The position numbers were made by a program, and so were the translations under genes. Shown here one piece after another: positions 25,611-54,378 of a stretch of DNA of 64,000 bases (positions within the stretch are counted from its first letter, which is position 1; every line of letters begins with the position of its first letter). The stretch is from Gammaproteobacteria bacterium (lineage in GTDB: Bacteria; Pseudomonadota; Gammaproteobacteria; Ga0077536). Location: positions 17,788 through 81,787 of the forward strand of contig JACPPA010000036.1 in NCBI GenBank assembly GCA_016191285.1, read 5' to 3'. The notes under the pieces are model-generated. The model ran no database searches, had not been told where the DNA came from, and saw only the letters and a list, made by a program, of their open reading frames with translations.

Positions 25611-25764
25611 GAAAGGGATGCGACTATCCACCTGGTGAAAACTCTTGGTCCTGCGCAACGGCCGCATCGGGATGCTACGATTGCAAGCGAACTTCAAGAC
25701 CGAAGTGGCCCTACATTAAGCGGAATTGGGCAAAAAAACGAGCGGAAAGCGAGGTCGGACCAGG

Positions 25765-35788: not shown

Positions 35789-35790
35789 CG

Positions 35791-37008
35791 TTAGTGTCCG
35801 CGCGCGGACAGCGCTTGTACGGGATCAAGCTGACTGGCGCGGCGCGCCGGGCCGACGCCGAAAATAATCCCGCAGCCGAGCGAAATGGTGAGCGCGCCAA
35901 GCGCGCCCCACCACGGCACCGCCGCCGGAAAACTGGGGTAGAGCAAGCGCAGTATCAGCGCGCCGCTCATGCCAAGCAAGGTACCGAACGCCGCACCGGC
36001 CACCGTCAGCAACAGGGCTTCGAGTAAAAACAACGTACGGATGTCGCGCGCGGTCGCGCCCAAGGCTTTGAGCAGTCCAATCTCGGACCGGCGCTGCGCG
36101 ATCGCGACCAACATCACATTCATGACCAGGATGCCGGCGACCAGCAAGCTAATGCCCGACACGGCGGCGACCGCGAGCGTGATCGTGCGCAGAATGCGAT
36201 CGAAGGTCGCGACCACACTGTCCTGCGTGACGATGGTGACATCATCCTCGCCTTCGTGCCGCGTTTTGATCACGCGACGGACGGCATTCGCGGCGCGTTC
36301 GATGCCGTGCGAGTCGTGGGTTTCAACGAGGATGCGAAAGAGGCCTTCGGTATTGAACAGGGCTTGGGCGGCGGCGACCGGGAGCAGCACAAGGTCATTG
36401 AAATCATTGCCGAGCGACACCCCGGTATTGTCCAGGATGCCGACTACCCGGCAACGCCGATCGCCGATCCTAAGCCAGGTGCCGAGGGCCGATTGATTAG
36501 CATAGAGTTCGTGGGCAAGGGTCGGACCGAGCACGCAACTCGCATCGACACGTGCGGTGTCCGCGGCCGTCAGGAAGCGGCCGGTCGCCACCACCAGATG
36601 CCGCACCTCAAGCATCGCGGCCGACACGCCCAAGATCGTGGCCTCGCGTTCCTTGCCGCTCGTCACCGACACATTGGCGCTGCCGACGACGATCGGCACC
36701 ACGCGCTGCACGTCGGGTAAGCGCAATAACGCGGCGGCGTCGCTTAACCGTAATTCGCGCGGCGTTTCGCCCATTACCGGCGGTAGGCCGCCGACGGTTT
36801 CATTGCGGCCCGGCAAGACTACCAGAAGGTTGGTCCCGAGCGCGCTGAATTCACCGACCACATACTGGCGTGCGCCATCTCCCAACGCGGTCAACAGCAT
36901 CACGGCGGCGACGCCAATCGTCGTCGCCAAGCCAATCAGCAACGAACGCATGCCCTGGGCGCGCAACGAACCCACGGCGAGCGCCAGCGTATCGTGCAAT
37001 TGCAACAT
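35791..37008 (-). CDS. MacB/FtsX-type ABC permease
   Basis: QRRSEIGLLKALGA, PARRASQLDPVQAL; start may be GTG 37014. Confidence 0.92.
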   Translation of the reverse strand: MLQLHDTLALAVGSLRAQGMRSLLIGLATTIGVAAVMLLTALGDGARQYVVGEFSALGTNLLVVLPGRNETVGGLPPVMGETPRELRLSDAAALLRLPDVQRVVPIVVGSANVSVTSGKEREATILGVSAAMLEVRHLVVATGRFLTAADTARVDASCVLGPTLAHELYANQSALGTWLRIGDRRCRVVGILDNTGVSLGNDFNDLVLLPVAAAQALFNTEGLFRILVETHDSHGIERAANAVRRVIKTRHEGEDDVTIVTQDSVVATFDRILRTITLAVAAVSGISLLVAGILVMNVMLVAIAQRRSEIGLLKALGATARDIRTLFLLEALLLTVAGAAFGTLLGMSGALILRLLYPSFPAAVPWWGALGALTISLGCGIIFGVGPARRASQLDPVQALSARGH

Positions 37009-37103
37009 GGCCACATTCTACGATCACCATGGTTGCATTGGAGTGCCGACTTCGGACATTCTGCACACGCCCCACGCCCGCCGCGGCCAAACGAGAGCAA
37101 CGC

Positions 37104-37853
37104 ATGGCAAAACTCTATGGTGACACCGACAAGTTCGGTGAGCAGAATTCCACGCCCGTGGTGGAAGCCTTTCATACCGCGGTGAGAGATCTGGTACGCC
37201 GGAAATTCGTTGAGTCCGGACAATCATGGTCCGAATTTGTATTCGGCGCGGCCCAGCAAGTCATCACGCAATCCGAGTTCGCGGCGATCGATGCACGCTT
37301 GCTCGACTATGGACATCGCTATGTGTGGTCCGCCGTGGTCTCACAAGAAGAACGCCCGGAAGCCTATCTCCCGGGTCAGACCGCCGGCGAGGATTTGAGC
37401 AATTTCAGTTTTGAACATCCCGATGCGATCACGGCCCTGCCGGACGCGCAAGGACTCGAGTTGCGTGGCGTCGGCGACAACGTGGTCAAGTACGCAACGG
37501 ATTTGATCGGCACCGCGCGCTATGTGCGATCGAGCGCAACGGTGCTGGCGTATCTCAATAGCGGTGTGCCACCAGGAACCATCGCCGTGATCGACGATTC
37601 AGGCGGCACCCTGACCGCACCCATCCTCGAACAGTTCACTGGCGTGCTCTGCGCTGGCGGCACGGTGCGGTCTCACTTGGGGATATTGACGCGCGAATAC
37701 GGCATCCCGTGTTTTATGAATGCGAGAATATCGGGCCTTAAAGAAGGCGATACCGTGCGCCTGGAAACGACAGCCGTGGCCAAAACCGCCGAGGCGTATC
37801 AAAAAGGCGTGGAGATGACGGGTCGCGTGTGGCGGGTGAATAAGCCAGCATGA
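37104..37853 (+). CDS. stand-alone PEP-utilising enzyme mobile (phospho-His swivel) domain protein with an unknown N-terminal half
   Basis: GVLCAGGTVRSHLGILTREYGIPC..LKEGDTVRL matches the swivel-domain consensus GGxxSHxAIxARExGIP. Confidence 0.8.
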   Translation: MAKLYGDTDKFGEQNSTPVVEAFHTAVRDLVRRKFVESGQSWSEFVFGAAQQVITQSEFAAIDARLLDYGHRYVWSAVVSQEERPEAYLPGQTAGEDLSNFSFEHPDAITALPDAQGLELRGVGDNVVKYATDLIGTARYVRSSATVLAYLNSGVPPGTIAVIDDSGGTLTAPILEQFTGVLCAGGTVRSHLGILTREYGIPCFMNARISGLKEGDTVRLETTAVAKTAEAYQKGVEMTGRVWRVNKPA

Positions 37854-39397
37854 ACCTTACCTACGCACAATTGCTCGAAACCAATAATCTCATTCAGCAG
37901 AACACCGACGAGACGTATTGGCTGTGTCTGACGCGCACCGTGCAAGAGTCAAAACTTTTTCCCGTATCGCCGTACATGATTTTGTCGTACTTCATGGCGT
38001 TTTATCGCTATCCCACCTTGCTGCGTAAGATCGAAACGCACATGCGGGCCGAGGAAATCGGCGATCGCGTGCGCAGTCGCGGTATCAAATGTCAGAATCC
38101 CGCCATGGGTTGGGGATTGCCGAATTTTTATCTGCTCGGACGTCAATATCTGATCTCGATGGGGCTTATCCGGCCGCAAGACGCGGTTGACGACATCATC
38201 TATGTGCTCGATTTCTGGAAGCGCTTTCAACTGGCCTGGCACCGCAACGATGCGCATATGACCAATCGCGAATTCGGGCATCGGGCGCAAATTCTGCCCG
38301 AGCGCCGCTTGCAAATCTTTCACGCGGATATGTATGACTGCGCCGAAGGCGACCCGCTGCACACCGCGGCGCAGGCCTTCATGGCGGCGACCTCGCAGTA
38401 TGGGTTTCTGGTGTCCTGCGAGAGTCGAATCGCCTTGCATAACCAAGGACCGTACAAGCTCGATGACGAGCGCGAAATGATCGTGCGCGATTTCATGGAT
38501 CTCGCCGAAGGCGACTATCCGTGGCTCGATGGCGTGGCGGCCGACGTGCCCTACAACAACCTGACCGTGCCGATGGCGGTCAAGGGCTGTCACTTCAATA
38601 TCATCGACGACTGGGGCTCGTTCGAGTCGCAACCCGAATTCAAATCGCATCACATGGTCGGCGTCGGACTTTATACCTCGGATTGTCTGTCTGACACTTA
38701 CCTGCCCGTGGGTATGGAGAGTCGCGAGGAGCTGACGCATACCTTCGAAATGCTGACCCAGAAAGCCAAGGACGCCACCGGCCGCCTGTGGAAACGGATC
38801 GCGGGCTGGACCCGCGATCAAATGATCGACGCGGGCGCCATCGTCTACTTCAGTATCTGCAAGGACATCGCGCACGTCGCGGGTTGCTATGACAGTGCGG
38901 ATTGGATGCTCATCGATGAGCGCGCCGAGCGTTTTCGGCCGTTGCTCAATGACGAATACGGCAACCTGTCGTTATACGAGATCCTGGGACCGCTATCTCA
39001 TCCGGCACAGCGCGGACACGACTATCAATTGGCGCAGCACGCGAATATTCCGGCGAATACTTATTCGCTGATCCCGTATTCGATTTTGGACGATGCCGAT
39101 TACACGCGAACCTGCGGCGAGCTCAAGCCTGGAATTACTTATCTTGAACCCAAACAAGATCGCTATCGCACGACGCAGGGTGTGTTGTCGCTCGCCGAGT
39201 ACAACCGGCGGGTTAAAGCCTTCACACCCTCCTTGTGTGGCGAAAAATATCGCTATAAATGCGAGAGCTGGCTTAAATACCATCACGACACGCCGCTCGC
39301 CGACGAGATGTATCGAATCGAACAGGTCGCCTCGCGGCGGCTCAAAGATTGCGGCGCCGGATTGAAACGCGCGGATATTGAAAAACTCCGCGATTGA
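37850..39397 (+). CDS. hypothetical soluble protein, 515 aa
   Basis: long ORF with ATGA overlap to the swivel-domain gene; no family recognised. Confidence 0.85.
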   Translation: MNLTYAQLLETNNLIQQNTDETYWLCLTRTVQESKLFPVSPYMILSYFMAFYRYPTLLRKIETHMRAEEIGDRVRSRGIKCQNPAMGWGLPNFYLLGRQYLISMGLIRPQDAVDDIIYVLDFWKRFQLAWHRNDAHMTNREFGHRAQILPERRLQIFHADMYDCAEGDPLHTAAQAFMAATSQYGFLVSCESRIALHNQGPYKLDDEREMIVRDFMDLAEGDYPWLDGVAADVPYNNLTVPMAVKGCHFNIIDDWGSFESQPEFKSHHMVGVGLYTSDCLSDTYLPVGMESREELTHTFEMLTQKAKDATGRLWKRIAGWTRDQMIDAGAIVYFSICKDIAHVAGCYDSADWMLIDERAERFRPLLNDEYGNLSLYEILGPLSHPAQRGHDYQLAQHANIPANTYSLIPYSILDDADYTRTCGELKPGITYLEPKQDRYRTTQGVLSLAEYNRRVKAFTPSLCGEKYRYKCESWLKYHHDTPLADEMYRIEQVASRRLKDCGAGLKRADIEKLRD

Positions 39398-39438
39398 CTT
39401 CTCGCGCCGGGCGCGACTAGCACTGGATACGTCAACTC

Positions 39439-40905
39439 ATGCAAATCGGACAACTCATCCGTCGCGCCGCCCAATACTTTAGTGATGCCGCGTGTCTGAT
39501 CGAAGGCCCGCGCCAGATCAGCTTCAAGGAATTCGATGCCGCGACCGATCGCCTGGGCAACGCCTTGCTGGCCCACGGCCTGCAGCCCGGCGAGCGCGTC
39601 GGCGTGCTGCTTTCGAACAGTATCGAATGCCTGATCGCCTACTACGCGGTGGCCAAGGCCGGGTTGGTGCGCGTTGGGCTCAACACGCGCGAGACCGTCG
39701 ATAATCATCAATACAAGATCACCGACGCTGGTTGTCGTGCGGTAATCCACGCCGGTGTGGCTGGCATCGACGCCGAAATGTTAATTGGCCCGGATCGATT
39801 ACTGACCATGATCGCGACCGGCCGCGCCGCGCCGTGTGCGATCGATCGCGCACTCGATGCGCCGTATCGCTTGGGCTATACCGGTGGCACCACGGGCAAA
39901 GCGAAAGCTGTTACGTTAACCACGCGCGGCGAGCTGGCGGAACTGGCGGCGTTTTTGCTCGATTTGATTCCAAACATTCGCGCCGGCGACACGTTCCTGC
40001 ACGCGGCGCCGATCGCGCACGCCTCGGGCGCGTTTTTCTTGCCGGCGCTGGCGCGCGGCGCCACCTCGCTCATCATGCCGAAATTCGATCCGGCGGAATT
40101 TATCCGGCTGGCCGAAGCCACCCAGGCGAGCATGACCTTCCTGGTGCCGACGATGCTCGCGATGATTTTGGAAGAGCCTGTGCTGGCGCGCGCGAAGCTC
40201 GCGTTTAATACCATCAGCTACGGCGCCTCACCCATTGCCCCGGCGGTGCTCGAGCGCGCGCAGGCGCGGTTTGGCCCAGTGTTCGCGCAAACCTATGGGC
40301 AGGCCGAAAGTCCGATGGTGATCACCTGTTTGAAACCGCATGAACAATCGCGCATTGGATCGTGCGGCCGGCCGTTTACGTTTGTCGACGTGGCGGTGTT
40401 GGACGATCAAGACCAGCCGTTGCCGCCAGGTGAAATCGGCGAAATTTGTTGCCGCGGTCCCCAGACGATGGCGTATTACTGGAATCGACCCGCGGCCACC
40501 GAACAGGCCTTCCGCAACGGTTGGTTACACACCGGCGATATCGGTCGCATGGATGAGGCAGGGTACTTCTATATTCTCGATCGCAAAAACGACATGTTGA
40601 TCTCCGGCGGTTACAACGTCTATCCGCGCGAAGTCGAAGAGGTGCTTCTCGAAGTCGAAGGCGTGATCGAAGCGGCAGTGATTGGTATCGCGGATGAAAA
40701 ATGGGGCGATCGCGTGCATGCGGTGGTCGCCGGCCGCGCCGATCTCGATCCTGAACTCATTCTGGCGCATGCGCGCTCGCGGCTCGCCAATTACAAACGG
40801 CCTAAGGCCATCGAGATCTGGCCCGAATTGCCGAAAAGCGCGGCGAATAAAATTCTCCGGCGTGAAATTCGCGATCGCATTGTGGCGCGCGGGAAACGTG
40901 AATAG
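39439..40905 (+). CDS. acyl-CoA synthetase/AMP-acid ligase
   Basis: YTGGTTGKAK, TYGQAE, HTGDIG, DRKNDMLISGG, LPKSAANK. Confidence 0.92.
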   Translation: MQIGQLIRRAAQYFSDAACLIEGPRQISFKEFDAATDRLGNALLAHGLQPGERVGVLLSNSIECLIAYYAVAKAGLVRVGLNTRETVDNHQYKITDAGCRAVIHAGVAGIDAEMLIGPDRLLTMIATGRAAPCAIDRALDAPYRLGYTGGTTGKAKAVTLTTRGELAELAAFLLDLIPNIRAGDTFLHAAPIAHASGAFFLPALARGATSLIMPKFDPAEFIRLAEATQASMTFLVPTMLAMILEEPVLARAKLAFNTISYGASPIAPAVLERAQARFGPVFAQTYGQAESPMVITCLKPHEQSRIGSCGRPFTFVDVAVLDDQDQPLPPGEIGEICCRGPQTMAYYWNRPAATEQAFRNGWLHTGDIGRMDEAGYFYILDRKNDMLISGGYNVYPREVEEVLLEVEGVIEAAVIGIADEKWGDRVHAVVAGRADLDPELILAHARSRLANYKRPKAIEIWPELPKSAANKILRREIRDRIVARGKRE

Positions 40906-40952
40906 CTGCTCGAATTTGATACGCAAGGCGCTGTTATCCGCTGGTGCATCTT

Positions 40953-41014
40953 GTGGGAGCCGCTTTAGCGGCGAATCTTTATCGAGGCTCCTTCGCTGCT
41001 AAAGCAGCTCCCAC
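40953..41014. repeat. REP doublet (REPIN)
   Basis: GTGGGAGCCGCTTTAGCGGCGAA ... TTCGCTGCTAAAGCAGCTCCCAC. Confidence 0.85.
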
Positions 41015-41099
41015 AAAATCTAAGTGTCGATTTATCGAATTTGATTGCGACACCAGGACACCAAGATTTAAGAGTAGCGTTGGACGCTGCGGAGACGAA

Positions 41100-41705
41100 A
41101 TGATGAATGAAATGCATCTGGCCCTGCATGGGCTAGCGATCAAAAAACATGCGGGACCGGCCGCCGTCGCGGCCACCGTGGGCTTAAGCGAAACGCGGGT
41201 TGCCGAATTACTGCAGCAGGCCGTGACCACCGGTCGTGCGAGCGAAGCACAAGGGGCGTATCTGCTGTCGCCAGCGGGACGCCTGATTATCGAGAGCCTG
41301 TATTCCAAGCTGTTCGATCGCGAGCGCCAAGACGGCGCGTTGGCCGGGGCTTACGAAAAATTCGAACGCATCAACACCGAACTGAAACAACTGATTACCG
41401 ATTGGCAGACCCTCGACGTCGGGGGCCAAAAAGTTCGCAACGATCATTCCAACAAAGATTATGATGCGCGGGTCTTGGACCGTCTTGGCGCCTTGCACGA
41501 GCGATTCACGCCGGTACTGGCGCAGCTCTGTCGCGGCGTGCCACGCCTCGACCTTTATCGGGAAAAGCTCGATCACGCGCTGGACCGCGCGGAAGCCGGG
41601 CAGGTGCAATGGGTAAGCGATGCGAAAATCGACAGTTTCCACACCGTATGGTTTGAAATGCATGAGGATTTATTGCGCATTTTGGGCCTTCAACGCGAGG
41701 AGTAG
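41100..41705 (+). CDS. winged-helix protein resembling M. tuberculosis Rv1126c
   Basis: N-terminal wHTH-like region (LSPAGR); FERINTELKQLITDWQ..NDH..YDARVLDRL..IDSFHTVWFEMHEDLL matches recalled Rv1126c motifs. Confidence 0.75.
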   Translation: MMNEMHLALHGLAIKKHAGPAAVAATVGLSETRVAELLQQAVTTGRASEAQGAYLLSPAGRLIIESLYSKLFDRERQDGALAGAYEKFERINTELKQLITDWQTLDVGGQKVRNDHSNKDYDARVLDRLGALHERFTPVLAQLCRGVPRLDLYREKLDHALDRAEAGQVQWVSDAKIDSFHTVWFEMHEDLLRILGLQREE

Positions 41706-41737
41706 GGCGGGCGCGTTTTCGTTTTACCCGATGACCC

Positions 41738-43480
41738 ATGGCAATTGAATTAGGCGCGTGGACCCTCGCCCTTAACGGCGCGAGCCTGCCCGAAAAATCC
41801 TTAATCGGCGGCAAGGCGTGGTCGATCGCGCGCCTTCGGGCATTCGATCTTCCGGTGCCGCCGGCCTTTGTTATCACCGTCAAAGCGTGTAATGCCTACC
41901 TACGCGATGGTGTAATCCCCGCGACGCTCGACGCCGAAATTCGCGCAGGCATGGCGTGGATCGAAGCACAGGCGGCGCGCCAATTTGGCGGCAGTGCCAA
42001 ACCCCTGCTGGTCTCGGTGCGCTCGGGCGCGATGATCTCGATGCCCGGCATGATGGATACCGTGCTCAATCTTGGCATTAATAACGCGACCGCGGCCGCC
42101 TTGGCCGCGGAAGCCGCCGATCCCGAATTCGCGCGCGACACGCACCGGCGTTTTCTCGATCTGTACGCGCGAATCGTATTGCGCGCGACGCTGCCGGAAT
42201 TAGCTTCCACGGCAGCGATTGACGATTGGCAGCGCGCGATTTTCGAAGCCACGGATCAGCGCGTGCCTGAAGATCCGTATGCGCAGTTGTGGGGCGCCAT
42301 CCACGCCGTGTTCGAATCGTGGAATTCGCGCCGCGCGCGGCGTTACCGCGAGCATCACGGTATCGCGCATGATTTGGGCACTGCGGTGACGGTCCAGGCC
42401 ATGGTGTTCGGTAATCTCGACGATCGATCAGGCACCGGCGTGCTGTTCAGCCGGAATCCACTGACCGGCGATCCCGCGCCCTACGGCGAATACCTGGCGC
42501 GTGCGCAGGGCGAAGACGTGGTGTCCGGCCGCTTTACGCCGCAACCGTTGGCCGCGTTGGCCTCGGCGATGCCCGACCTCCATGCCCAACTGTTGGCCGC
42601 CGCCGTGACCTTGGAACGCGAGAACGGCGACGTGCAGGATATTGAATTCACGATCCAACATGCCGAGCTCTATCTATTGCAAACGCGCGCAGCCAAACGC
42701 GCACCCGCGGCGGCCGTGCGCTTTGCCTGCGACATGGTGCACGAAGGCCGTATCGATCGGGCCACTGCGTTGTCGCGGCTCAGCGCCGAACAAGTGCGCG
42801 TGCTCTTAAGCCCGCGTCTGGCGTCTGGCGTGACGGCGCGTGCGGTCGCGCAGGGCGAAGCGGCCTGCCAAGGCGTCGGTGTTGGCGTGGTGGTGATGAG
42901 CAGCGATGAGGCCGAGCGTCGCGCGCAGGCCGGTGAAGCAGTGGTGTTGGCGCGTGAGACAACGAGTCCGGATGATGTGCACGGCATGCTCGTGGCGCGC
43001 GCGGTGATTACCGAGCAGGGTGGCGCGACCTCGCACGCGGCGGTCGTGAGCCGTGCGCTCGGCGTGCCGTGCGTGGTGGGTTGCGGGGTCGGTAGTTTGG
43101 CGGCGCTTACGGGGACAATGGTCACCGTCGATGGCGCGAGCGGCCAGATTTACGCTGGTAATCTGCCGGTGCTGGCGCCCAACGAGCGCGATGATCCCGC
43201 GCTCTGCGAACTCTTGCGATGGGCCGAGCGCGTGTGTCCGATCACGGTCCTCGACGAGACCGCGCCGGTGGCCGAAGTCTACGATCTCGATGTCGTTAAA
43301 GGCGGTGAAGACGCGACGCAGTTGGCGACCTTGCTCGCTGGCCGCAAAATTGCCAAGGGCGGCGCGATTACCAGCGATGAGGGTGTGAGAGCGGCGCTGC
43401 AAGCTGGCGTGACCACTATCGTCGCACGGCATCGCTTGCCGGTGATGCTGGCCGCCATCGCGGCGACGCGTGGCGACTGA
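41738..43480 (+). CDS. PPDK-like dikinase: ATP-grasp plus phospho-His domains, no pyruvate-binding barrel
   Basis: IGGKA, LLVSVRSGA..SMPGMMDTVLNLG, VQAMVFGN, AQGEDVVSG, QDIEFT, LLQTR, GGATSHAAVVSR; ends ~100 aa after the His domain. Confidence 0.9.
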   Translation: MAIELGAWTLALNGASLPEKSLIGGKAWSIARLRAFDLPVPPAFVITVKACNAYLRDGVIPATLDAEIRAGMAWIEAQAARQFGGSAKPLLVSVRSGAMISMPGMMDTVLNLGINNATAAALAAEAADPEFARDTHRRFLDLYARIVLRATLPELASTAAIDDWQRAIFEATDQRVPEDPYAQLWGAIHAVFESWNSRRARRYREHHGIAHDLGTAVTVQAMVFGNLDDRSGTGVLFSRNPLTGDPAPYGEYLARAQGEDVVSGRFTPQPLAALASAMPDLHAQLLAAAVTLERENGDVQDIEFTIQHAELYLLQTRAAKRAPAAAVRFACDMVHEGRIDRATALSRLSAEQVRVLLSPRLASGVTARAVAQGEAACQGVGVGVVVMSSDEAERRAQAGEAVVLARETTSPDDVHGMLVARAVITEQGGATSHAAVVSRALGVPCVVGCGVGSLAALTGTMVTVDGASGQIYAGNLPVLAPNERDDPALCELLRWAERVCPITVLDETAPVAEVYDLDVVKGGEDATQLATLLAGRKIAKGGAITSDEGVRAALQAGVTTIVARHRLPVMLAAIAATRGD

Positions 43481-43540
43481 CGTCGACGCGGCAATTTCAG
43501 GCTAACCTTCAATCAAACAATTTGTGCTACGGAAACCAGT

Positions 43541-44050
43541 ATGGCGAATGCAGACATCCCCAAAGTAAGCGCCGAGGACATCGAGAGCCTCATCGAACTC
43601 TTTAAGCAGTCGGGCTGGGATGAAATGCATCTTAAGACTGCAGATCTTGAACTGTTCCTCTCCAATGATCCGAATGCAACGGGTCCGCGTCAGACACCGG
43701 CAATCGCTGTGGCGGGACCCGCGGTCGCTGGTTCAGCCGCCATGCCGACCACCGCCGCGGCGCCGGCGAGTGCGGCGACGATTGGCCATGCAGCGGCCAT
43801 TCCGGACGGCACGGTTGCGATCCGCGCGCCCAACCTCGGCACTTTTTATCGCGCACCCAAGCCCGGCGCGCCTCCCTATGTCGAATTGGGTCAGCAGATC
43901 GAAATCACCACTGAGGTGGGTCTGATCGAAGTCATGAAACTGTTCACGCCGGTGCAGGGAAGCGTGCGCGGCGTGGTCCGGGAGATCCGTGCCAAGGATG
44001 GGCAAATGGTTGAGTTCGATGAGCCGTTGATCATCGTCGAACCGAACTAG
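43541..44050 (+). CDS. biotin carboxyl carrier protein
   Basis: Ala/Pro linker, GTFYRAP, EVMKL biotinylation motif. Confidence 0.93.
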   Translation: MANADIPKVSAEDIESLIELFKQSGWDEMHLKTADLELFLSNDPNATGPRQTPAIAVAGPAVAGSAAMPTTAAAPASAATIGHAAAIPDGTVAIRAPNLGTFYRAPKPGAPPYVELGQQIEITTEVGLIEVMKLFTPVQGSVRGVVREIRAKDGQMVEFDEPLIIVEPN

Positions 44051-44055
44051 CGTTA

Positions 44056-45423
44056 ATGCCAATCTCGCGCGTCTTAAGCGTTAACCGCGGCGAAATTGCC
44101 GCGCGCGTGGTGCGTGCCGCGCAGGCGCTCGGGATCGAAGCCGTGCAAGCGGTGTCCGCCGCCGATCGCGACAGTACCGCGGCACGGCTCGCCGATCGCA
44201 CCGTGGTGATCGGGCCCGCGGCTTCGCGCCTCAGTTATCTCGATGCGCCGTTGCTGGTGCATGCCGCCAAAGCCACTGGCTGCGATGCGCTTCATCCCGG
44301 CTATGGCTTTCTGTCCGAACGTGAACATTTGGCGCGCCTCTGCGGCGAACACGGCATTACGTTTGTTGGCCCGGCGCCCGAGACCATCGCGGCGTTGGGC
44401 GACAAGCTACAAGCGAAGGCGATTGCGCAAGCCGCGGGTGTTCCGTTGGTGCCAGGGACGGCAAAAATCGCGGATGCCGCGGCCGCGAAGGCGGCGGCGG
44501 AAGCACTTGGATTTCCGGTGTTGTTGAAGGCTTCGGCTGGCGGCGGAGGCCGCGGCATGTTCATTGCCCGGCGTGCCGAAGAGATCGAAGCTTCGTTCGA
44601 TAAATCCTCGAATGAAGCGCTGGAAGCCTTTGGCGACGGCACCATGTACATGGAGCGCTTCGTCGAAAACGCGCGCCATGTCGAAGTCCAGGTGTTCGGC
44701 GACGGCAGCGGCAAAGTGCTGCATTTTGGCGAGCGCGATTGTTCGATCCAGCGGCGCTACCAAAAAGTGTTTGAAGAAGCGCCATGCGCGGCGATGCCGG
44801 CCAAGCTGCGGAAACTTCTGCACGACTCAGCGGTCGCCTTGGTGGCGTCGCTCAAGTATCGCAATGCCGGCACCGTGGAATTTCTATATGACGTCGATCG
44901 CGCGGCGATTTATTTCATCGAAGTTAACGCGCGCATCCAGGTCGAACATCCGGTGTCCGAGCAGGTCACCGGCTATGATCTGGTGCAACTGCAGTTTCGG
45001 ATCGCCGGTGGCGAGCCCCTGCGCTGGTCGCAAGCGCAGGTGCCGGTACAGGGACACGCGATCGAGTGCCGCATCAATGCCGAAGATCCGACGCGGAATT
45101 TTCAACCGAGCCCGGGACGGATCACGCGCTGGGCACCGCCACACGGCGCCGGGATTCGTCTCGACAGCCATTGTTATGACGGCTATCTGGTGCCGCCGTT
45201 CTACGATTCGATGATCGGCAAGCTGATTGTCACGGCGGCGACACGCGCCGATTGCGTCACCCGTTTGCAAGCGGCGCTCGCCGCTTTCACAATCGAGGGC
45301 CTGATCACCAATCTACCGCTGCTTAAATTTATCGCGGCGCATCCGGATTTTGCCGCCAATCGATTAAACACTCGCTGGCTCGAGCAGACCTTGCTGCCGG
45401 GTTTTGAAGCTTCGCAGGAGTAA
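44056..45423 (+). CDS. biotin carboxylase
   Basis: NRGEIA, HPGYGFLSE, GGGGRGM, ERDCSIQRR, RIQVEHPV, CRINAED. Confidence 0.95.
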   Translation: MPISRVLSVNRGEIAARVVRAAQALGIEAVQAVSAADRDSTAARLADRTVVIGPAASRLSYLDAPLLVHAAKATGCDALHPGYGFLSEREHLARLCGEHGITFVGPAPETIAALGDKLQAKAIAQAAGVPLVPGTAKIADAAAAKAAAEALGFPVLLKASAGGGGRGMFIARRAEEIEASFDKSSNEALEAFGDGTMYMERFVENARHVEVQVFGDGSGKVLHFGERDCSIQRRYQKVFEEAPCAAMPAKLRKLLHDSAVALVASLKYRNAGTVEFLYDVDRAAIYFIEVNARIQVEHPVSEQVTGYDLVQLQFRIAGGEPLRWSQAQVPVQGHAIECRINAEDPTRNFQPSPGRITRWAPPHGAGIRLDSHCYDGYLVPPFYDSMIGKLIVTAATRADCVTRLQAALAAFTIEGLITNLPLLKFIAAHPDFAANRLNTRWLEQTLLPGFEASQE

Positions 45424-45430
45424 GGTTCCG

Positions 45431-46891
45431 ATGGCCCATATTGAATTTCTCGACGAGACCATGCGCGACGGCCAGCAAAGCCTGTGGGGCATGCGCATGC
45501 AAGCCGGCATGGCGTTACCCGTGGCGTCGTTGATCGATCGCACCGGCTTTCGGGTGATCGACCTCACGGGTTCGTCGATGTTCGAAGTGCTAATCAAGTA
45601 CTGTCAAGAGAATCCGTGGCAAGGCCTTGACCTCTTAACCCAGGCCATGCCGCGGACCAAAATTCGTGGTGGCATGCGCTCCAATGCGTCGGTGACCTTT
45701 AGCGTCACGCCGGATGCGTTGATGGATGCGTGGATGCGGCAACTGAATGTGCACGGTTGCCGCAGTTTTTGGATCTACGACGTGCTGTTCAATATCGACA
45801 AGATGCATCGCCTGGCCAAAGTCGCGAAGGAGTTTGGTTCGGAAGTCGCCGGCGCGATCATGTTCACCTTGAGCCCGGTGCATTCCGATGCCTACTATGC
45901 CGACAAAGCGGACAAGCTTTCGGCGTGCAAGGATATCGATACCTTGCTGCTGTACGACACCGCTGGCGTGCTCGAAAAAGAACGCATGCAGACCTTGATC
46001 CCGGCGCTCATCGCCAACGCGCGCGGCAAGCCCATTGAATTCCATTCCAACAATCTACTGGGCCAGTCCGCCAAAGCGTATCTAGATGCGGTGGAACTTG
46101 GTGTACGCATTTTGCACACGGCGAGTCGGCCGATGGCGAACGGCCCGTCGGTGCCGTCGACCGAAATCATGGTGCGTAATATTGAATTGCTCGGGCACAC
46201 GCATTCGCTCGACACCTCGTTGCTGCCGCCAGTCGCCGCGCATTTCGAGAAAGTGGGTAAGGCCGCCGGATTTTTAGTCCACCAATACGCCGAATACGAC
46301 ATGTTATCGATCCAACATCAAATTCCGGGCGGCATGGTCGGCACGATGAAGGCGCAGCTGGTGCAGCACGGCATGGCGGAGCGATTGGAAGCGGTGTTGG
46401 CGGAGACCGCGGTGGTCCGGCGCGAACTTGGGTTTCCCGGCATGGCGACGCCGTTCAGCCAATTGGTCGGCACGTTGGCCGTGCTGAACATCGTCACCGG
46501 CAAACGTTATTCGGTGATCCCCGACGAAGTCATTCAGTACGCGTGCAAGCATTATGGCGAAACCGTCGCGCCCATCGATCCCACTGTGCTCGACAAGATC
46601 ATGGCCGCGCCACGCGCCAAGGAGATCGCCACGCATCCACCGGAGCAACCGAGCTTAGCCGAGCTGCACCGACGCTACGGCACCGATAACGACGACGAAT
46701 TGATCCTGCGCGCGCTGGTGCCCGAGGCTGATTTAAATAAGATGTGGGCGGCGGGGCCGGTTAAAACCACCTATCCGTATCTATCGTCACCCGAACTCGA
46801 TCAAGTGCGACGTTTGATGCAAGTGGCAACCGCGCCCGTGGTGCAGATCAAAGCGGATCGATTAAATCTGTCGTTACGGAAATTTAAGTAG
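45431..46891 (+). CDS. pyruvate carboxylase B/oxaloacetate decarboxylase alpha-like carboxyltransferase, no biotinyl domain
   Basis: DETMRDGQQSL, HQIPGGM, VRRELGFPGMATPFSQLVG. Confidence 0.88.
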   Translation: MAHIEFLDETMRDGQQSLWGMRMQAGMALPVASLIDRTGFRVIDLTGSSMFEVLIKYCQENPWQGLDLLTQAMPRTKIRGGMRSNASVTFSVTPDALMDAWMRQLNVHGCRSFWIYDVLFNIDKMHRLAKVAKEFGSEVAGAIMFTLSPVHSDAYYADKADKLSACKDIDTLLLYDTAGVLEKERMQTLIPALIANARGKPIEFHSNNLLGQSAKAYLDAVELGVRILHTASRPMANGPSVPSTEIMVRNIELLGHTHSLDTSLLPPVAAHFEKVGKAAGFLVHQYAEYDMLSIQHQIPGGMVGTMKAQLVQHGMAERLEAVLAETAVVRRELGFPGMATPFSQLVGTLAVLNIVTGKRYSVIPDEVIQYACKHYGETVAPIDPTVLDKIMAAPRAKEIATHPPEQPSLAELHRRYGTDNDDELILRALVPEADLNKMWAAGPVKTTYPYLSSPELDQVRRLMQVATAPVVQIKADRLNLSLRKFK

Positions 46892-46958
46892 CGGTCTACC
46901 AACGATGAACGCAATGTTGTCAGGACAGCGATGGTTTAATTGTGGGACGTTACTTCTT

Positions 46959-47116
46959 GTGGGAGCCGCTTCAGCGGCGAATCGTCCCTCCGCAGAACTC
47001 ACCGTCATTGGAAGTAGTGAAACGACCAAGCTTTTCCAGAAAGTGGCACAAGATGGATGGCTTCGCTTTGGCTCACAACGATGGCGCAAAAGATTCGCGG
47101 ATAAATCCGCTCCCAC
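46959..47116. repeat. REP pair with long spacer
   Basis: GTGGGAGCCGCTTCAGCGGCGAA ... TTCGCGGATAAATCCGCTCCCAC. Confidence 0.75.
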
Positions 47117-47158
47117 AAGTAGCGTCATATCATTTGCGACAATGTGAAAGAGAAAATC

Positions 47159-48346
47159 ATGCGTCGTGCAGTAATTATTGATGTTGTCCGCTCGCCCTTC
47201 GGCCGCGGCCGCGAAGACGGCGCGCTCGCCGGCCTTCACCCGGTCGATCTCTATGCACAGGTCTTACAAGGCCTAGTCAAGCGTACCCGCATCGATCCAG
47301 CGCTTATCGAGGATGTGATCACCGGCTGCGTGATTCAAGTCGCCGAGCAGGCAGGGAATATTGGGCGCCAAGCCGTACTCGCCGCGGGCTTTCCGGAATC
47401 CGTGCCGGCGGTCACGCTGGATCGCAAGTGTGGCTCGGCGCAGCAGGCGATGGATTTCGCGGCGCAAGGCGTGATCGCCGGCGCCTACGATGTGGTGATC
47501 GCCGGCGGCGTGGAAATGATGGGCACGGTGCCGATGCGGATCAATCGCATGGGCAAGGATAGCGAAGGGCCGGGATTTCGTGCGCGCTATCCGGCCGGGA
47601 CGGTGCACCAGGGGGTCTCCGCCGAACGCGTCGCAGGACGTTATGGGCTTACGCGCGTTGAACAAGACGCGTATTCCGTGCGCTCGCATTCGCGCGCCGC
47701 TGCCGACCAGGCGCAATCCGCGCGCGATATCATTTCGATCGCGGTGCCGACGGCTGATGGCGCCACCCGCCAAGTGGCGCAGGACGAAGGAATCCGGCCG
47801 AACACCACCGCGGAAAAACTCGCGACGTTGAAATGTGCGTTTGAAGACGCCGCGTTCGCGACGCGCTTCCCGGAAATTCAGTGGAGCGTAACGGCCGGCA
47901 ATGCGAGCCAAATCTCGGATGGCGCGAGCGCCATATTGATCGTGGAAGAAAAAGTTGCCGCGCGCTTAGGACTGAAACCACGCGCGGCCGTGACGGGTTT
48001 TGCGGTGGTGGGCGATGATCCGCTGATGATGCTGACCGCGATTATTCCAGCGACCCGGAAGCTTTTGCAGCGCGCCGGCATTGCACTCGATAAAGTTTCG
48101 GCGTACGAAGTTAACGAAGCGTTTGCGTCGGTGCCACTCGCCTGGCAGAAAGCGTTGGACGCCGATCCCGAGCGATTGAATGTGTTCGGTGGCGCGATCG
48201 CCATCGGTCATCCGGTCGGCGCGTCGGGCGGTCGACTGACGGCGAATTTGCTCCGCGCCTTGGAAGTCACTCGTGGTCAATACGGGATTCAAACGATGTG
48301 CGAGGCGGGCGGTATGGCCAACGCCACGCTTATCGAGCGACTGTAA
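47159..48346 (+). CDS. thiolase (acetyl-CoA C-acyltransferase)
   Basis: DRKCGSA catalytic Cys, NEAFA, GHPVGASG, MCEAGG. Confidence 0.95.
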   Translation: MRRAVIIDVVRSPFGRGREDGALAGLHPVDLYAQVLQGLVKRTRIDPALIEDVITGCVIQVAEQAGNIGRQAVLAAGFPESVPAVTLDRKCGSAQQAMDFAAQGVIAGAYDVVIAGGVEMMGTVPMRINRMGKDSEGPGFRARYPAGTVHQGVSAERVAGRYGLTRVEQDAYSVRSHSRAAADQAQSARDIISIAVPTADGATRQVAQDEGIRPNTTAEKLATLKCAFEDAAFATRFPEIQWSVTAGNASQISDGASAILIVEEKVAARLGLKPRAAVTGFAVVGDDPLMMLTAIIPATRKLLQRAGIALDKVSAYEVNEAFASVPLAWQKALDADPERLNVFGGAIAIGHPVGASGGRLTANLLRALEVTRGQYGIQTMCEAGGMANATLIERL

Positions 48347-48366
48347 GGTTATTCGACGTTCCGCCT

Positions 48367-48450
48367 CCCCTCACCCCGGCCCTCTCCCGCAAGGGGAGAG
48401 GGAGTAATGCGAAAGCGCGATCTTTCCCCTCTCCCCTTGCGGGAGAGGGG
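48367..48450. repeat. BoxC-like purine/pyrimidine palindromic repeat
   Basis: CCCTCACCCCGGCCCTCTCCCGCAAGGGGAGAGGG ... CCCCTCTCCCCTTGCGGGAGAGGGG. Confidence 0.7.
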
Positions 48451-48508
48451 AATGGAAAGCGTCAATAGCGAAAACGTTTGATTGAATTAGAACAGCGAGG
48501 TAGGTGAA

Positions 48509-49291
48509 ATGGGTCGCGTACAAGACAAGGTTACGATTATCACCGGTGCCGGCACCGGCATCGGTCGCGCCTGCTTTGAACTCTTCGCGCGTGAAGGCGC
48601 GACCGTCATTGGCGTGTCGCGCACGCAATCGAATCTCGATGCGGCCTTGGCCGCGGTCCGCGCCGCCGGCGGTAGCGGCATGGTGCTCGCCAAAGATTTA
48701 TCAAAACCCGCAAGCGCGGATGAGATCGTTGCCGCCACGCTACACACCTACGGCCGTATCGATGTGCTGGTGCATTCTGCAAGTGTGGGCTGGAGCTGGG
48801 GCGATAAGAGTCCGGGCTCGATGCTGCCGTTGGCGGAAACCACCCCCGAAAAATGGAGGGAAGTGATCGGCTTCAACCTCGACGCCGCGGCCTTTATCAA
48901 CCGCGTTTGCTTGATCCAAATGTTGAAGCAAGGGCACGGCTCGATCGTCAACGTCGCGAGCATTTCCGGGTTGGTCGGCATGCCAACCGCACATACTTAC
49001 TGTGCTGCCAAAGGTGGCGTAATCAATCTCACGCGTTCGATCTCGACCGCCTATGCCAAAGATGGCATCCGCGCCAACGCGGTGTGTCCCGGTTACACCG
49101 ACACGCCGATGATAGCGCCGGTGATGGGTCTCTTCGACGACAACGCCGTCGCGACCCAGTTGACGCCGATGGCGCGCGCTGGCACGCCGCTAGAAATGGC
49201 CTACGGCTGTTTGTATCTCGGCTCGGACGAAGCGTCGTATTGCAATGGAACGATACTGATCATCGATGGCGGGACCACCGCGCGGCAGTAA
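48509..49291 (+). CDS. short-chain dehydrogenase/reductase
   Basis: TGAGTGIG, NVASIS, YCAAK, CPGYTDT, IDGG. Confidence 0.94.
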   Translation: MGRVQDKVTIITGAGTGIGRACFELFAREGATVIGVSRTQSNLDAALAAVRAAGGSGMVLAKDLSKPASADEIVAATLHTYGRIDVLVHSASVGWSWGDKSPGSMLPLAETTPEKWREVIGFNLDAAAFINRVCLIQMLKQGHGSIVNVASISGLVGMPTAHTYCAAKGGVINLTRSISTAYAKDGIRANAVCPGYTDTPMIAPVMGLFDDNAVATQLTPMARAGTPLEMAYGCLYLGSDEASYCNGTILIIDGGTTARQ

Positions 49292-49390
49292 ACCCTTCCT
49301 GCTCGTTTTCGATTTGACCGATTCATTGCCGCAAACCACAGGAAACGTTGGCTCGATGCCATCAGCTCAATCTTATAAGCAGAGACTCTC

Positions 49391-50428: not shown

Positions 50429-50461
50429 TCCACGGTTTACCCTGGGCACCGTCTGATTTAG

Positions 50462-53589: not shown

Positions 53590-54378
53590 CTAGTCAAGCA
53601 GCAAGCCACGTAGCCGGCTCTGCCATTCATAGTTGGTGAAATCGAGTTGGATGGGCGTGACGGAGACGGCGTTTTGCTGGATGGCATGGAGATCGGTATC
53701 CGGCTGCTTTTCGCCTTCTGGATAACTTAATTTTACCCAGTAATAGGGCACCTGCCGGCCATCCACGCGAGCATCGATGCTGAACGCTCCGGGCGGACGC
53801 TGACCTTGACGAGTGACACGGATCTCGGTGATGTCATCCGGTCCGCAATCCGGAAAATTGATGTTAATTAAACTCTGCGCGGGCCAGGCCTCGTCCGCGA
53901 TCAGTTTGTGCAGCAGCCCCGGTGCGTATTGGCGGGCGCCTTCCCAGCTCGCTTGGCCGGCAAGCGGCCGCACGACGCTTAAGGCTATAGAGCGCACTCC
54001 AAGCAAAGTGCCTTCCATCGCCGCGGCGATAGTGCCGGAATAGGTCACGTCTTCAGCGAGATTAGCGCCATTGTTGAAACCCGAGAGCACTAACGTCGGT
54101 TTGTGATCTTTCATGACTTCGTGGAAGGCCATCAACACACAATCAGTCGGCGTGCCGACCACGGCATAGCTTTTTTCACTGACTCGTCTGAGCCTGATGG
54201 GCACGTGCAGCGAGATCGAATGGCTCGCGCCGCTCCGTTCGTGGTCGGGCGCCACCACCCAAACATCGTCGGTGAATTCGCGCACGATTTCCTCGAGTAT
54301 CTTGATCCCCGGAGCCTCGATGCCATCATCGTTCGTGATCAAGATGCGGGTGCTAGGAAAGGGCTTGCGTTTACTCAT
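53590..54378 (-). CDS. surE: 5'/3'-nucleotidase SurE
   Basis: ILITNDDG, SGASHS, GTPTDC, YSGTIAAAMEG. Confidence 0.93.
   Translation of the reverse strand: MSKRKPFPSTRILITNDDGIEAPGIKILEEIVREFTDDVWVVAPDHERSGASHSISLHVPIRLRRVSEKSYAVVGTPTDCVLMAFHEVMKDHKPTLVLSGFNNGANLAEDVTYSGTIAAAMEGTLLGVRSIALSVVRPLAGQASWEGARQYAPGLLHKLIADEAWPAQSLININFPDCGPDDITEIRVTRQGQRPPGAFSIDARVDGRQVPYYWVKLSYPEGEKQPDTDLHAIQQNAVSVTPIQLDFTNYEWQSRLRGLLLD

Follow-up and report, generated by a model that had tools for sequence, protein, structure and literature searches.

The adjacent genes swv249 and orf515 probably encode the acceptor side of a split dikinase that consists of four proteins and serves phosphorylation-dependent carboxylation of ketones, a reading to which we assign a probability of roughly 0.6. 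The genes lie in a 64,000-nucleotide stretch of DNA, analyzed as a whole and here called the window. The cluster that they belong to (Table 1) is best read as following the Hpe/Acv logic of acetovanillone breakdown with a third, non-homologous kinase, in which a His-to-His relay is possible.

Table 1. Genes of the operon and a loosely linked phosphatase gene, with positions in the window
Feature	Position	Strand	Features
swv249 (P0001, 249 aa)	37104..37853	+	translation from ATG 37104; N-terminal helical docking domain, residues ~16-88; acceptor-class swivel phospho-His domain, residues ~118-245
orf515 (P0002, 515 aa)	37850..39397	+	
AMP-forming acyl-CoA ligase (488 aa)	39439..40905	+	Pfam AMP-binding, AMP-binding_C
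orf200 (201 aa)	41100..41705	+	GGAG precedes ATG 41100; family members 200-201 aa
VadK-type truncated PPDK (P0124, 580 aa)	41738..43480	+	ATP-grasp (PPDK_N) and canonical swivel, no PEP/pyruvate barrel
BCCP	43541..44050	+	Pfam Biotin_lipoyl; TIGR00531
Biotin carboxylase (BC)	44056..45423	+	Pfam CPSase_L_D2, Biotin_carb_N/C
Carboxyltransferase (CT), 5S/PycB/OadA type	45404..46891	+	Pfam PYC_OADA, HMGL-like
Thiolase	47144..48346	+	Pfam Thiolase_N/C
Short-chain dehydrogenase (SDR)	48509..49291	+	Pfam adh_short; candidate secondary alcohol to ketone step
SurE-family phosphatase	53590..54378	-	Pfam SurE; candidate dephosphorylation step, loosely linked

The overlap between the swv249 stop and the orf515 start, proposed in the preliminary description, is borne out by the DNA, where positions 37850-37853 read ATGA (...gccagc ATGA acc...), so that the TGA stop of swv249 overlaps the ATG of orf515. 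The alignments of swv249 homologs begin at residue 1-3, with a coverage of 0.96-1.00 in most loci, which supports the assigned start. Far from occurring mostly without a swivel-domain neighbor, the orf515 family has a same-strand swivel gene as its immediate upstream neighbor in all 71 related loci for which 800 nt or more of upstream sequence was available. Across these 71 loci the two genes are separated by anything between -1 and about 114 nt; what is conserved is their adjacency, not the precise 4-nt overlap. A Pfam scan of 41 window proteins found PPDK_N once and PEP-utilizers twice and reported no PEP/pyruvate barrel, in agreement with the earlier count of two phospho-His domains, a single dikinase ATP-grasp domain and no pyruvate barrel. 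The ~200-aa reading frame orf200 is a fourth part, beyond those listed at that stage. A 253-aa ORF with a GTG start at 40944 was rejected as the extent of orf200, being too long in view of the GGAG and ATG at 41100 and the family length. Promoter and terminator scans of positions 36900-51500 gave counts not above those in shuffled sequences, and Rfam produced 0 matches in the whole window.

The swv249 protein carries a swivel fold with a conserved candidate phospho-His, His191. Pfam PEP-utilizers (PF00391) matches residues 156-220 (28.3 bits, cut-off 23.1, E 1.4e-6), and a search of the sequence against PDB chains gave 0 matches. The AlphaFold2 model (pLDDT 85.1) was matched by Foldseek to the swivel domains of rifampin phosphotransferase (RPH), pyruvate kinase and PPDK. 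Among the 23 matches with E<=1e-3, the best was RPH entry 5fbu (E 6.6e-6), and PPDK was represented by 5jvj, 1kbl and 2fm4. Residues 185-202 read GGTVRSHLGILTREYGIP. The G-G-x-x-S-H pattern formed by Gly-185, Gly-186, Ser-190 and His-191 is kept in 72/72 sequences, and Arg189-Ser190-His191 is likewise invariant in all 72, so that the histidine singled out earlier proves fully conserved.

The canonical dikinase context T-S-H-A-A-V is absent from swv249, which has R-S-H-L-G-I instead. The preliminary description was correct in noting an Arg where PPDK has a Thr; the second swivel of the operon has the canonical Thr431-Ser432-His433. The Thr at the position equivalent to Arg189 is, we assume, the regulatory Thr of plant PPDK. 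When the swivels of the acceptor modules were aligned, all fell into one divergent class that has an insertion and the pattern x-R/E-S-H-L-G/A-I. The HpeH-like swivel, which is loaded directly by an ATP-grasp subunit, retains the canonical S-H-A-A-V/I.

The orf515 protein founds a large family without a name or a domain model. Sequence searches with it against Pfam, NCBIfam and the PDB gave no match, and its relatives numbered 914 in one search and 420 in another, with 62-88% identity among the 120 best matches listed. A core (residues ~10-370) is common to paralogs of ~370-415 aa and is followed by a C-terminal extension of ~150 aa. The AlphaFold2 model is of high confidence (pLDDT 90.9, pTM 0.91), and Foldseek found 0 PDB matches with E<=1e-3, the best E value being 0.27. 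The Bet v 1/SRPBCC-like and TolC rows in this search are noise (E 0.27-2.6, TM ~0.1). The ESM Atlas gave a best score of 0.87, which is under the lead threshold. A known unrelated fold, which would have spoken against a role in phosphotransfer, was thus not found among PDB structures. The likeness to the substrate domains of rifampin phosphotransferase and phenylphosphate synthase that had been anticipated is absent by Foldseek and hhalign; the PDB library includes RPH entries, which were recovered there with the swv249 swivel model. Against an HpeH-like protein of 603 aa there was no BLASTP match below E 0.1, and hhalign with the orf515 family gave a probability of 0.39%. Since orf515 lacks any PDB neighbor, we count the missing likeness to RPH and PpsA as neutral rather than as refuting. 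Swivel neighbors, natural fusions and His conservation each favored the interpretation in the preliminary description.

Only Gly-97, Arg-193, Gly-200, Pro-201 and Gly-329 are invariant in the whole orf515 family. Among orthologs, the invariant residues include Arg-29, Arg-98, Cys-190, Glu-191 and the family-wide Arg-193. The protein does contain 12 cysteines (2.3%), but apart from Cys190 all of them vary among 73 orthologs, and its earlier characterization as Cys-rich is therefore weak; with 1 of 12 cysteines invariant, a metal or Fe-S role was discarded. We propose that orf515 is the acceptor-binding, phosphotransfer subunit. It has no recognizable phosphotransferase motif, which counts against the main reading.

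A model of the complex between swv249 and orf515 reached a score of 0.85, the best of three controls scoring 0.00, and it passes a mark that 58/80 solved complexes and 2/110 mismatched pairs reached in a calibration that is rough, because own alignments were used. At least 72% of the contacts agree between runs, and partner pLDDT is at least 79. The modeled interface comprises residues 185-191 of swv249, including Arg-189, Ser-190 and His-191, and residues 29-30, 190-191 and 193 of orf515. The model places His191 facing the invariant orf515 patch Arg29/Cys190-Glu191/Arg193. As no solved relative of orf515 was found in the PDB, it is unlikely that the predictor passed by reproducing a memorized structure.

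The kinase P0124 has Pfam matches to PPDK_N and PEP-utilizers only, and it scores 707 bits against NCBIfam PRK05878 (cut-off 456). Its swivel motif GGATSHAA is invariant in 51 sequences. In 54/54 loci, the gene immediately upstream of that for the kinase is orf200. The ESM Atlas returned only unnamed clusters of its own kind for orf200. Relatives carry the machine-given names "transcriptional regulator" or "MarR family", and there are no mycobacterial names among the 120 relatives listed. The protein is 49% identical to residues 529-723 of P0092 (E 4e-62).

Natural fusions of the swivel to the orf515 core, the existence of which had been suggested as a check, do occur, in paralogs (P0171, P0206, the protein encoded at 3927-5573 of locus L060 and a 542-aa protein of locus L079), and the swivel in these is N-terminal. 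On plasmid pROB02 of Rhodococcus opacus B4, a 793-aa protein consists of swivel, core and a part like the 200-aa protein. A weak TrmB winged-helix match falls in the orf200-like part of this triple fusion, which is adjoined by a VadK-like PPDK 40% identical to P0124. Homologs of ~720 aa are orthologs in which orf515 is fused at its C-terminus to orf200; they were ruled out as swivel fusions, the extra part being orf200.

In the 36 loci where the orf515 homolog is flanked on each side by at least 8 kb (full-flank loci), its neighbors are swivel (35), orf200 (35), VadK-type kinase (32), BCCP (32), BC (31), CT (34) and CoA ligase (30). Thiolase is present in 19/36 of these loci and the SDR in 20/36; an SCPx-type thiolase occurs in 31 loci. 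Members of the family are found in three contexts, namely a carboxylase cluster, a P450/ADH/ALDH cluster and a Methylibium set. The family has hundreds of members in Gamma- and Alphaproteobacteria and Actinomycetota, abundant freshwater lineages included. An orf515-type cluster is present in Nanopelagicales MAGs; these would be odd hosts for lignin-type aromatics, a point of ecology that counts against the main reading.

The SurE gene is the only candidate phosphatase gene of the window and lies ~3 kb past the operon, on the opposite strand and beside transporter genes, which we also count against the main reading. SurE homologs stand upstream of the swivel gene, at a distance of 1-4 kb, in 23/78 loci, and at least one of four phosphatase families is present in 32/78 loci, many of which are short. 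A Y_phosphatase3 gene lies within the operon of R. oxybenzonivorans, and HAD genes are found in 7 Actinomycetota loci; the window's operon has no HAD phosphatase. By Pfam and NCBIfam, neither an HpeHI/AcvAB nor a MarK kinase is encoded in this operon.

In a tree of the carboxyltransferases, the orf515-type clade (100/99) is sister (100/97) to the CTs of the HpeHI-type and MarK-type clusters; the tree has 21 rows with only two outgroup rows, which weighs against our reading. Identities between the window and a Hpe/Acv-type cluster on a Rhizobium plasmid are 37% for CT, 49% for BC and 35% for BCCP.

In the reading that we prefer, the VadK-type protein would transfer phosphate from ATP to its own canonical swivel residue His433, as the autophosphorylation of VadK of M. 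tuberculosis on His suggests, and orf200, judging from the fusions and the gene order, would tether the kinase to orf515. The N-terminal helices of swv249 would anchor this protein to orf515, and its His191 would carry phosphate taken either from His433 or straight from the ATP-grasp site. The swivel would then pass its phosphate on to a small molecule bound in the predicted pocket of orf515, Arg-rich and invariant; the acceptor is most likely a hydroxyl group on a methyl ketone, probably a phenolic one. With this handle in place, BCCP, BC and CT would be able to carboxylate the acetyl group. A phosphatase, SurE-type in the window and HAD or PTP-type elsewhere, would strip the phosphate, after which the beta-keto acid would be cleaved to acetyl-CoA and an acyl-CoA by the CoA ligase and thiolase. 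This scheme does not account for the second swivel domain, which counts against it.

According to a wider and tentative view, which we consider possible if doubtful, the orf515 family is a new phosphotransferase fold fed by a His-to-His relay from the canonical VadK-type donor swivel to the divergent R/E-S-H-L acceptor swivel, and VadK-type truncated PPDKs would generally be ATP-driven donors of modular small-molecule kinases. It is unlikely that a small-molecule kinase operates here without a relay, the ATP-grasp domain of P0124 pyrophosphorylating His191 in trans, as PpsB does PpsA, with the P0124 swivel regulatory or vestigial. Phenylphosphate synthase is stated to work by phosphorylation in trans of a separate His subunit, but the acceptor-module swivels are a separate motif class whereas the directly served HpeH-like swivel stays canonical, and the invariance of GGATSHAA argues that the kinase's own swivel is not vestigial.

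The substrate might also be phosphorylated differently. Here orf515 would bind a plain methyl ketone (acetone, alkyl or aryl), phosphorylated His191 would phosphorylate its enolate, and CT would carboxylate the enol phosphate with release of phosphate, in a PEP synthase-like manner. This would fit the derivation of the kinase parts from PPDK, which makes an enol phosphate, the pyruvate/oxaloacetate type of the CT, the common presence of an SDR able to make a ketone from a secondary alcohol, the lack of a phosphatase inside the window's operon and the carriage of the cluster by small-genome freshwater Actinomycetota. The chemistry of acetone carboxylase itself runs via phosphoenolacetone. Four unrelated phosphatase families nevertheless recur by the cluster, one of them in a Rhodococcus operon, and would be superfluous if the enol phosphate were consumed at carboxylation; the closest CT relatives use substrates with a remote aryl phosphate, and we know of no biotin enzyme that uses an enol phosphate. 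We judge this route distinctly unlikely. Very unlikely, finally, is a regulatory phosphorelay, in which the VadK-type kinase would sense ATP and pass phosphate to swv249, which would switch orf515 or the carboxylase, and no small molecule would be phosphorylated. VadK has been proposed as a regulator of methylcitrate-cycle enzymes (PMC13400623), and the names of the orf200 relatives and the TrmB match point the same way. Against this stand the enzyme-like conservation of orf515, the company of phosphatases and catabolic enzymes in its three contexts, and the requirement of the sister Hpe/Acv pathway for a substrate kinase, for which the cluster holds no other candidate.

Breakdown of aromatic ketones by phosphorylation followed by carboxylation has been described only since 2022, with two known types of kinase. 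If our reading is true, the orf515 module is a third, and it rests on a family that has no name, domain model or structural neighbor, yet is widespread. The second swivel, the new-fold protein and the 200-aa adaptor are a candidate partner set for VadK-type truncated dikinases, and the module may exemplify phosphate transfer between two swivel domains. Were the relay reading true, it would supply a biochemical type of acceptor for VadK-type kinases, so far known only as a regulator; and if the substrate is a common natural ketone, the cluster would mark an unrecognized carbon route in lakes and soils. Literature searches turned up no description of the orf515 family; clusters of this kind may appear in PMC9618137 (SI Fig. 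S5) and in PMC12624787 (Datasets S2/S3). The publications found on acetone, biotin and dikinases and on the oxybenzone degrader contained nothing on an orf515-type cluster.

The Hpe/Acv pathways for hydroxyphenylethanone and acetovanillone use the kinase HpeHI/AcvAB, the biotin carboxylase HpeCBA/AcvCDE and the phosphatase HpeD/AcvF (PMC9618137; bioRxiv 10.1101/2022.04.28.489975), and HpeCBA carboxylates only phosphorylated substrates (PMC9618137). The window resembles them in that its genes for BCCP, BC and a 5S-type CT adjoin those for a CoA ligase, for a C-C cleaving enzyme and for a kinase that is ATP-dependent and His-mediated. However, its kinase module has four proteins instead of two, and its ATP-grasp protein bears its own swivel; the ATP-grasp part of P0124 is only 24% identical to an HpeI-like protein. 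The window also lacks a HAD phosphatase and has a thiolase in place of the HpeF hydrolase; that its CoA ligase and thiolase are unlike HpeE (acetoacetyl-CoA-synthetase type) and HpeF counts against the main reading. The Hpe/Acv kinase has already been swapped once for a non-homolog, MarK of Novosphingobium aromaticivorans, described as a monomeric aromatic kinase of the UPF0261 family (PMC12624787). Unrelated proteins can thus fill the kinase slot beside an acv/hpe-type carboxylase, and some orf515 loci, like plasmid MarK-type clusters, adjoin DUF1302/DUF1329 genes. In contrast to the monomeric MarK, the window module has four proteins and two phospho-His domains.

Phenylphosphate synthase (Proteins 1-3/PpsABC) and CreHI are split dikinases too, in which the ATP-binding subunit phosphorylates a His of the other subunit in trans and the phenolic hydroxyl is then phosphorylated. 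In these enzymes one chain makes up the acceptor subunit, its substrate part is of the PpsA type and differs from orf515, and there is one swivel; in PpsA, HpeH, AcvA and CreH the swivel is C-terminal on the substrate-part chain, whereas the window swivel is a separate protein. PPDK, PEP synthase and rifampin phosphotransferase share the swivel fold and the G-G-x-x-S-H motif with swv249, but each of them is one polypeptide that has a single swivel and either a TIM-barrel or a RIF-binding domain for the acceptor; orf515 matches none of them, and swv249 has an Arg rather than a Thr at -2 from the His. VadK (Rv1127c) of M. tuberculosis phosphorylates itself on a His and binds Rv1126c, its partner in the operon; it is described as a regulatory kinase and proposed to act on methylcitrate-cycle enzymes by interaction (PMC13400623). 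Its description as acting on enzymes and not on small molecules counts against the main reading. P0124 is like VadK in having an ATP-grasp domain and a swivel without a barrel and a ~200-aa gene directly upstream, but it differs in that its operon is catabolic and also encodes a second, dedicated swivel protein and a partner of new fold.

The 515-residue product orf515 (P0002) is encoded directly downstream of the 249-residue swivel phospho-His protein P0001, and the two genes overlap at the ATGA of 37850–37853, where the stop codon of the one meets the start of the other, as the preliminary description had noted. The product listed at 40944–41705 really starts at ATG 41100, with GGAG upstream and family members of 200–201 residues; it is termed orf200 here. 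The truncated pyruvate phosphate dikinase (PPDK) P0124 scores 707 bits against NCBIfam PRK05878 (cut-off 456). Scanning of 41 window proteins brought up no PEP/pyruvate barrel, so the earlier tally (a pair of phospho-His domains, a single ATP-grasp domain of the dikinase type, and no barrel) is correct. The MacB-type permeases are also kept beside the cluster in the closest gammaproteobacterial loci.

Features of the operon and of other genes in the window
Feature	Coordinates	Strand	Remarks
Adenylate/guanylate cyclase with FHA domain	23891–25697	−	adjoins PP2C phosphatase
CysG-like protein	33201–34163	−	320 aa; dehydrogenase/ferrochelatase part and only about the first 85 methylase-profile positions; possibly a truncated siroheme synthase
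Two MacB-type permeases	34589–37014	−	divergent from operon
P0001, swivel protein	37104–37853	+	from ATG, 249 aa; GGTVRSHLGILTREYGIP at residues 185–202
P0002 (orf515)	37850–39397	+	ATG ORF, 515 aa
AMP-forming CoA ligase	39439–40905	+	Pfam/NCBIfam scan
orf200	40944–41705	+	listed from GTG; true start ATG 41100; no family
P0124, VadK-type truncated PPDK	41738–43480	+	580 aa; PPDK_N and second PEP-utilizers domain; NCBIfam PRK05878
Biotin carboxyl carrier protein (BCCP), biotin carboxylase (BC), 5S/PycB-type carboxyltransferase (CT)	43541–46891	+	Pfam/NCBIfam
Thiolase, SDR, AAT-family protein	after CT	+	Pfam scan
SurE-type phosphatase	53590–54378		
ABC ATPase and HlyD-type adaptor	54431–56312	−	adjoin SurE gene
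Fused acyl-CoA carboxylase	58283–61570	−	single chain of 1095 aa, BC + BCCP + Carboxyl_trans; second biotin enzyme within the window

Residues 156–220 of P0001 match the Pfam PEP-utilizers family above the curated cut-off. The AlphaFold2 model (pLDDT 85.1; 33-row alignment) consists of helices (residues 18–83) and an α/β domain (residues 118–245), and Foldseek matches it to the swivel domains of rifampin phosphotransferase (5fbu, E 6.6e-6) and PPDK, as well as to the C-terminal domain of Bacillus pyruvate kinase. All 72 sequences compared retain Arg-189, Ser-190, and His-191. When ten swivels are aligned, two classes emerge. The canonical motif G-G-x-x-S-H-A-A-V/I is carried by swivels that share a chain with an ATP-grasp domain, namely those of P0124 and its Rhodococcus relatives, and by the swivel of an HpeH-like protein; the P0124-type version, GGATSHAA, is invariant in 51 sequences. 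The swivels that accompany orf515-type proteins show x-(R/E)-S-H-L-(G/A)-I together with an additional segment, G-G-T-x-x-x-P-I-L.

P0002 has no matches in Pfam, NCBIfam, or the PDB sequences. At E ≤ 1e-3, a word-indexed search gave 914 relatives, and its top 120 hits are 62–88% identical, all named ones being annotated "hypothetical protein"; full HMMER comparison with representatives clustered at 50% identity gave 420 at the same threshold, 247 of them with E ≤ 1e-10. Among the HMMER hits, many of ~370–415 residues align to P0002 residues ~10–360 at 25–35% identity. This places the core in approximately the N-terminal 370 residues and makes the remaining ~150 specific to the 515-residue orthologs. 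The AlphaFold2 model has a mean pLDDT of 90.9 and a pTM of 0.91 (39-row alignment). Searched against the PDB with Foldseek, it gave nothing with E ≤ 1e-3 (best E 0.27, TM ~0.1); the library does contain the rifampin phosphotransferase entries, since the P0001 model retrieved them. The ESM Atlas gave no lead. The orf515 family is thus large and unnamed, with a fold that, judged from the model, is new. Twelve arginines (Arg-29, -53, -73, -75, -98, -125, -132, -193, -213, -322, -358, and -361) are invariant among 73 orthologs, as are the blocks Cys-190–Glu-191–x–Arg-193, Asp-253–Asp-254–Trp-255–x–Ser-257, and Tyr-275–Thr-276–Ser-277–Asp-278; one of the 12 cysteines is invariant.

A complex prediction of P0002 with P0001 scored 0.85, against 0.00 for the best of three controls. 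Of 80 solved complexes, 58 reach the mark used, as do 2 of 110 mismatched pairs; these counts are a rough guide here because custom alignments were used. The runs share at least 72% of their contacts, and partner pLDDT is at least 79. In the predicted complex, the N-terminal helices of P0001 (residues 16–88) rest on residues 103–112, 310–325, and 358–377 of P0002, and the swivel face, including residues 185–191, contacts residues 29–40, 175–193, and 250–266. The contacted surface is the region of the invariant Arg-29, Cys-190–Glu-191–x–Arg-193, and Ser-257. Because P0002 has no relative of known structure, the score is unlikely to reflect structures that the predictor had memorised. The model supports binding of P0001 to P0002.

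Natural fusions join the same parts. Homologs of ~720 residues (P0092, P0111, P0115, P0122, P0125, and P0127) consist of orf515 with a C-terminal relative of the 40944–41705 product (P0092 residues 529–723, 49% identity, E 4e-62). Swivel and core are fused in the paralogs P0171 (PEP-utilizers 38–106, core 155–482) and P0206 (58–107 and 223–539), in L060:3927–5573, and in a 542-residue protein of L079. All three parts are fused, in gene order, in a 793-residue "PEP-utilizing enzyme" of Rhodococcus opacus B4 plasmid pROB02: swivel 8–105 (E 9e-11), core 228–548 (E 3e-17), and orf200-like part 624–790 (E 7e-15). Nearby (L081, 257–14725) are a VadK-like PPDK with 40% identity to P0124, a P450, ferredoxin, FAD reductase, ADH, ALDH, a Y_phosphatase3 (PTP-type) protein, and two EcKL/APH kinases. 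This layout resembles the Cre route, in which alkylphenol phosphorylation precedes side-chain oxidation.

A genome scan yielded 78 loci with an orf515 relative, in which the window proteins were placed by tblastn. Most are metagenome-assembled genomes (MAGs) of Gammaproteobacteria, Alphaproteobacteria, and Actinomycetota; isolates include Roseiarcus fermentans, Rhodosalinus halophilus, Pseudonocardia endophytica, and Blastococcus jejuensis. In each of the 71 loci that extend 800 nt or more upstream of orf515, a swivel gene on the same strand ends at most 114 nt before it; the other seven lack this upstream DNA and fall outside the count. Thirty-six loci have 8 kb or more of flanking DNA on each side; of these, the swivel is found in 35, the 200-residue protein in 35, the VadK-type kinase in 32, BCCP in 32, BC in 31, CT in 34, CoA ligase in 30, thiolase in 19, and SDR in 20. 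An SCPx-type thiolase occurs in 31 loci. The 200-residue gene lies immediately upstream of the kinase gene in all 54 loci holding both. Exceptions to the cluster are L078 (pair only), L049 and L050 (split cluster), and L076 (broken orf515).

Six MAG records with the cluster (L002, L008, L014, L017, L019, and L072) bear the title Klebsiella pneumoniae, Hydrogenophaga intermedia, or Bifidobacterium breve. As their genes are 46–87% identical to those of unclassified lake and stream MAGs of Gammaproteobacteria or Actinomycetota, these titles seem unreliable. In Actinomycetota (L060:2174–5573, L058 ~1090–4170, L079:7905–12275), a second and third swivel/orf515-like pair lies just upstream of the main operon, comprising a short swivel, a 398-residue core, a 542–548-residue swivel-core fusion, and a ~375-residue protein with a weak DUF7065 match; these clusters hold three acceptor modules per single VadK-type kinase. 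On the Methylibium petroleiphilum PM1 plasmid (L082, 7315–18600), a 415-residue orf515-like protein, a 153-residue protein, a 149-residue swivel, and an orf200-like "MarR" protein adjoin B12-dependent acyl-CoA mutase genes, MeaB, and an AMP-binding ligase.

A maximum-likelihood tree of 21 rows, with a midpoint root and only two outgroup rows (a Caballeronia PycB-like protein and an OadA), groups the 16 CTs of orf515-type clusters in one clade (support 100/99), sister (100/97) to three Hpe/Acv-type CTs. The Caballeronia sp. NK8 plasmid (L085, 65–12529) carries a PycB-like CT with accB and accC beside acetoacetate decarboxylase and carbonic anhydrase, a biotin carboxylase set for which a small ketone might be the substrate. 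Phosphatase genes are recurrent neighbours of the cluster: 23 loci, and the window, have a SurE-type gene; 10 loci have a Y_phosphatase3-like gene, which also lies within the R. oxybenzonivorans operon; seven Actinomycetota loci have a HAD gene; and a single locus has His_Phos_1. Overall, 32 of the 78 loci have one or more of these types, a minimum given how short many loci are. Some gammaproteobacterial orf515 loci are flanked by DUF1302/DUF1329 genes. In L020, L046, and L078, these adjoin orf515-type clusters together with BNR-repeat and MMPL/RND genes, and DUF1302/DUF1329 genes also adjoin the MarK-type, acetovanillone-like cluster of P. putida YC-AE1 (L086:10617–13365); these genes may be an uptake system common to both cluster types.

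The sequences, linkage, fusions, and folds are shown here, together with a complex model that passes its controls. The simplest account is that P0001 and P0002 are the acceptor half of a four-protein split dikinase. A hydroxylated methyl ketone would be phosphorylated, carboxylated, and then dephosphorylated; we infer this substrate, what the phosphatases do, and every transfer of phosphate. An enol-phosphate route acting on plain ketones is a rival reading, although the recurring phosphatases and the kinship of the CTs with Hpe/Acv-type CTs speak against it. A purely regulatory relay is disfavoured by conservation of the kind seen in enzymes and by occurrence in three distinct catabolic contexts. 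His-191 could also be loaded directly in trans, with no relay, but the existence of two classes of swivel motif and the invariance of the swivel in the kinase lean against this.

None of the papers found by literature search describes the acceptor protein family or its fold, a four-part architecture with two swivel classes, or a catabolic operon that contains a VadK-type kinase. The logic of the pathway and the chemistry of the swivel are already known. P0124 falls in the same model family as VadK (Rv1127c), a truncated PPDK reported to autophosphorylate on His-422 with ATP and Mg, to be more soluble when co-expressed with its operonic partner Rv1126c, and to require 2 M NaCl for separation from it; the authors proposed a regulatory role (PMC13400623). 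In phenylphosphate synthase, an ATP-binding protein is described as loading His-569 of another protein (restated in bioRxiv 10.1101/2022.04.28.489975). HpeHI is reported to phosphorylate the phenolic hydroxyl of 4-hydroxyacetophenone and acetovanillone, after which HpeCBA carboxylates phosphorylated compounds only, HpeD dephosphorylates, and a CoA synthetase and a hydrolase finish (PMC9618137). The acvABCDEF genes of SYK-6 follow the same scheme (bioRxiv 10.1101/2022.04.28.489975), and in other bacteria the unrelated kinase MarK fills the HpeHI/AcvAB slot (PMC12624787). For comparison, a canonical HpeHI-type cluster was taken from a Rhizobium plasmid (L084), and MarK-type clusters from plasmids of Sphingomonas (L083) and Pseudomonas (L086). 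Window CT, BC, and BCCP are 37, 49, and 35% identical to those of the HpeHI-type cluster, and the split dikinase would take the place of HpeHI or MarK.
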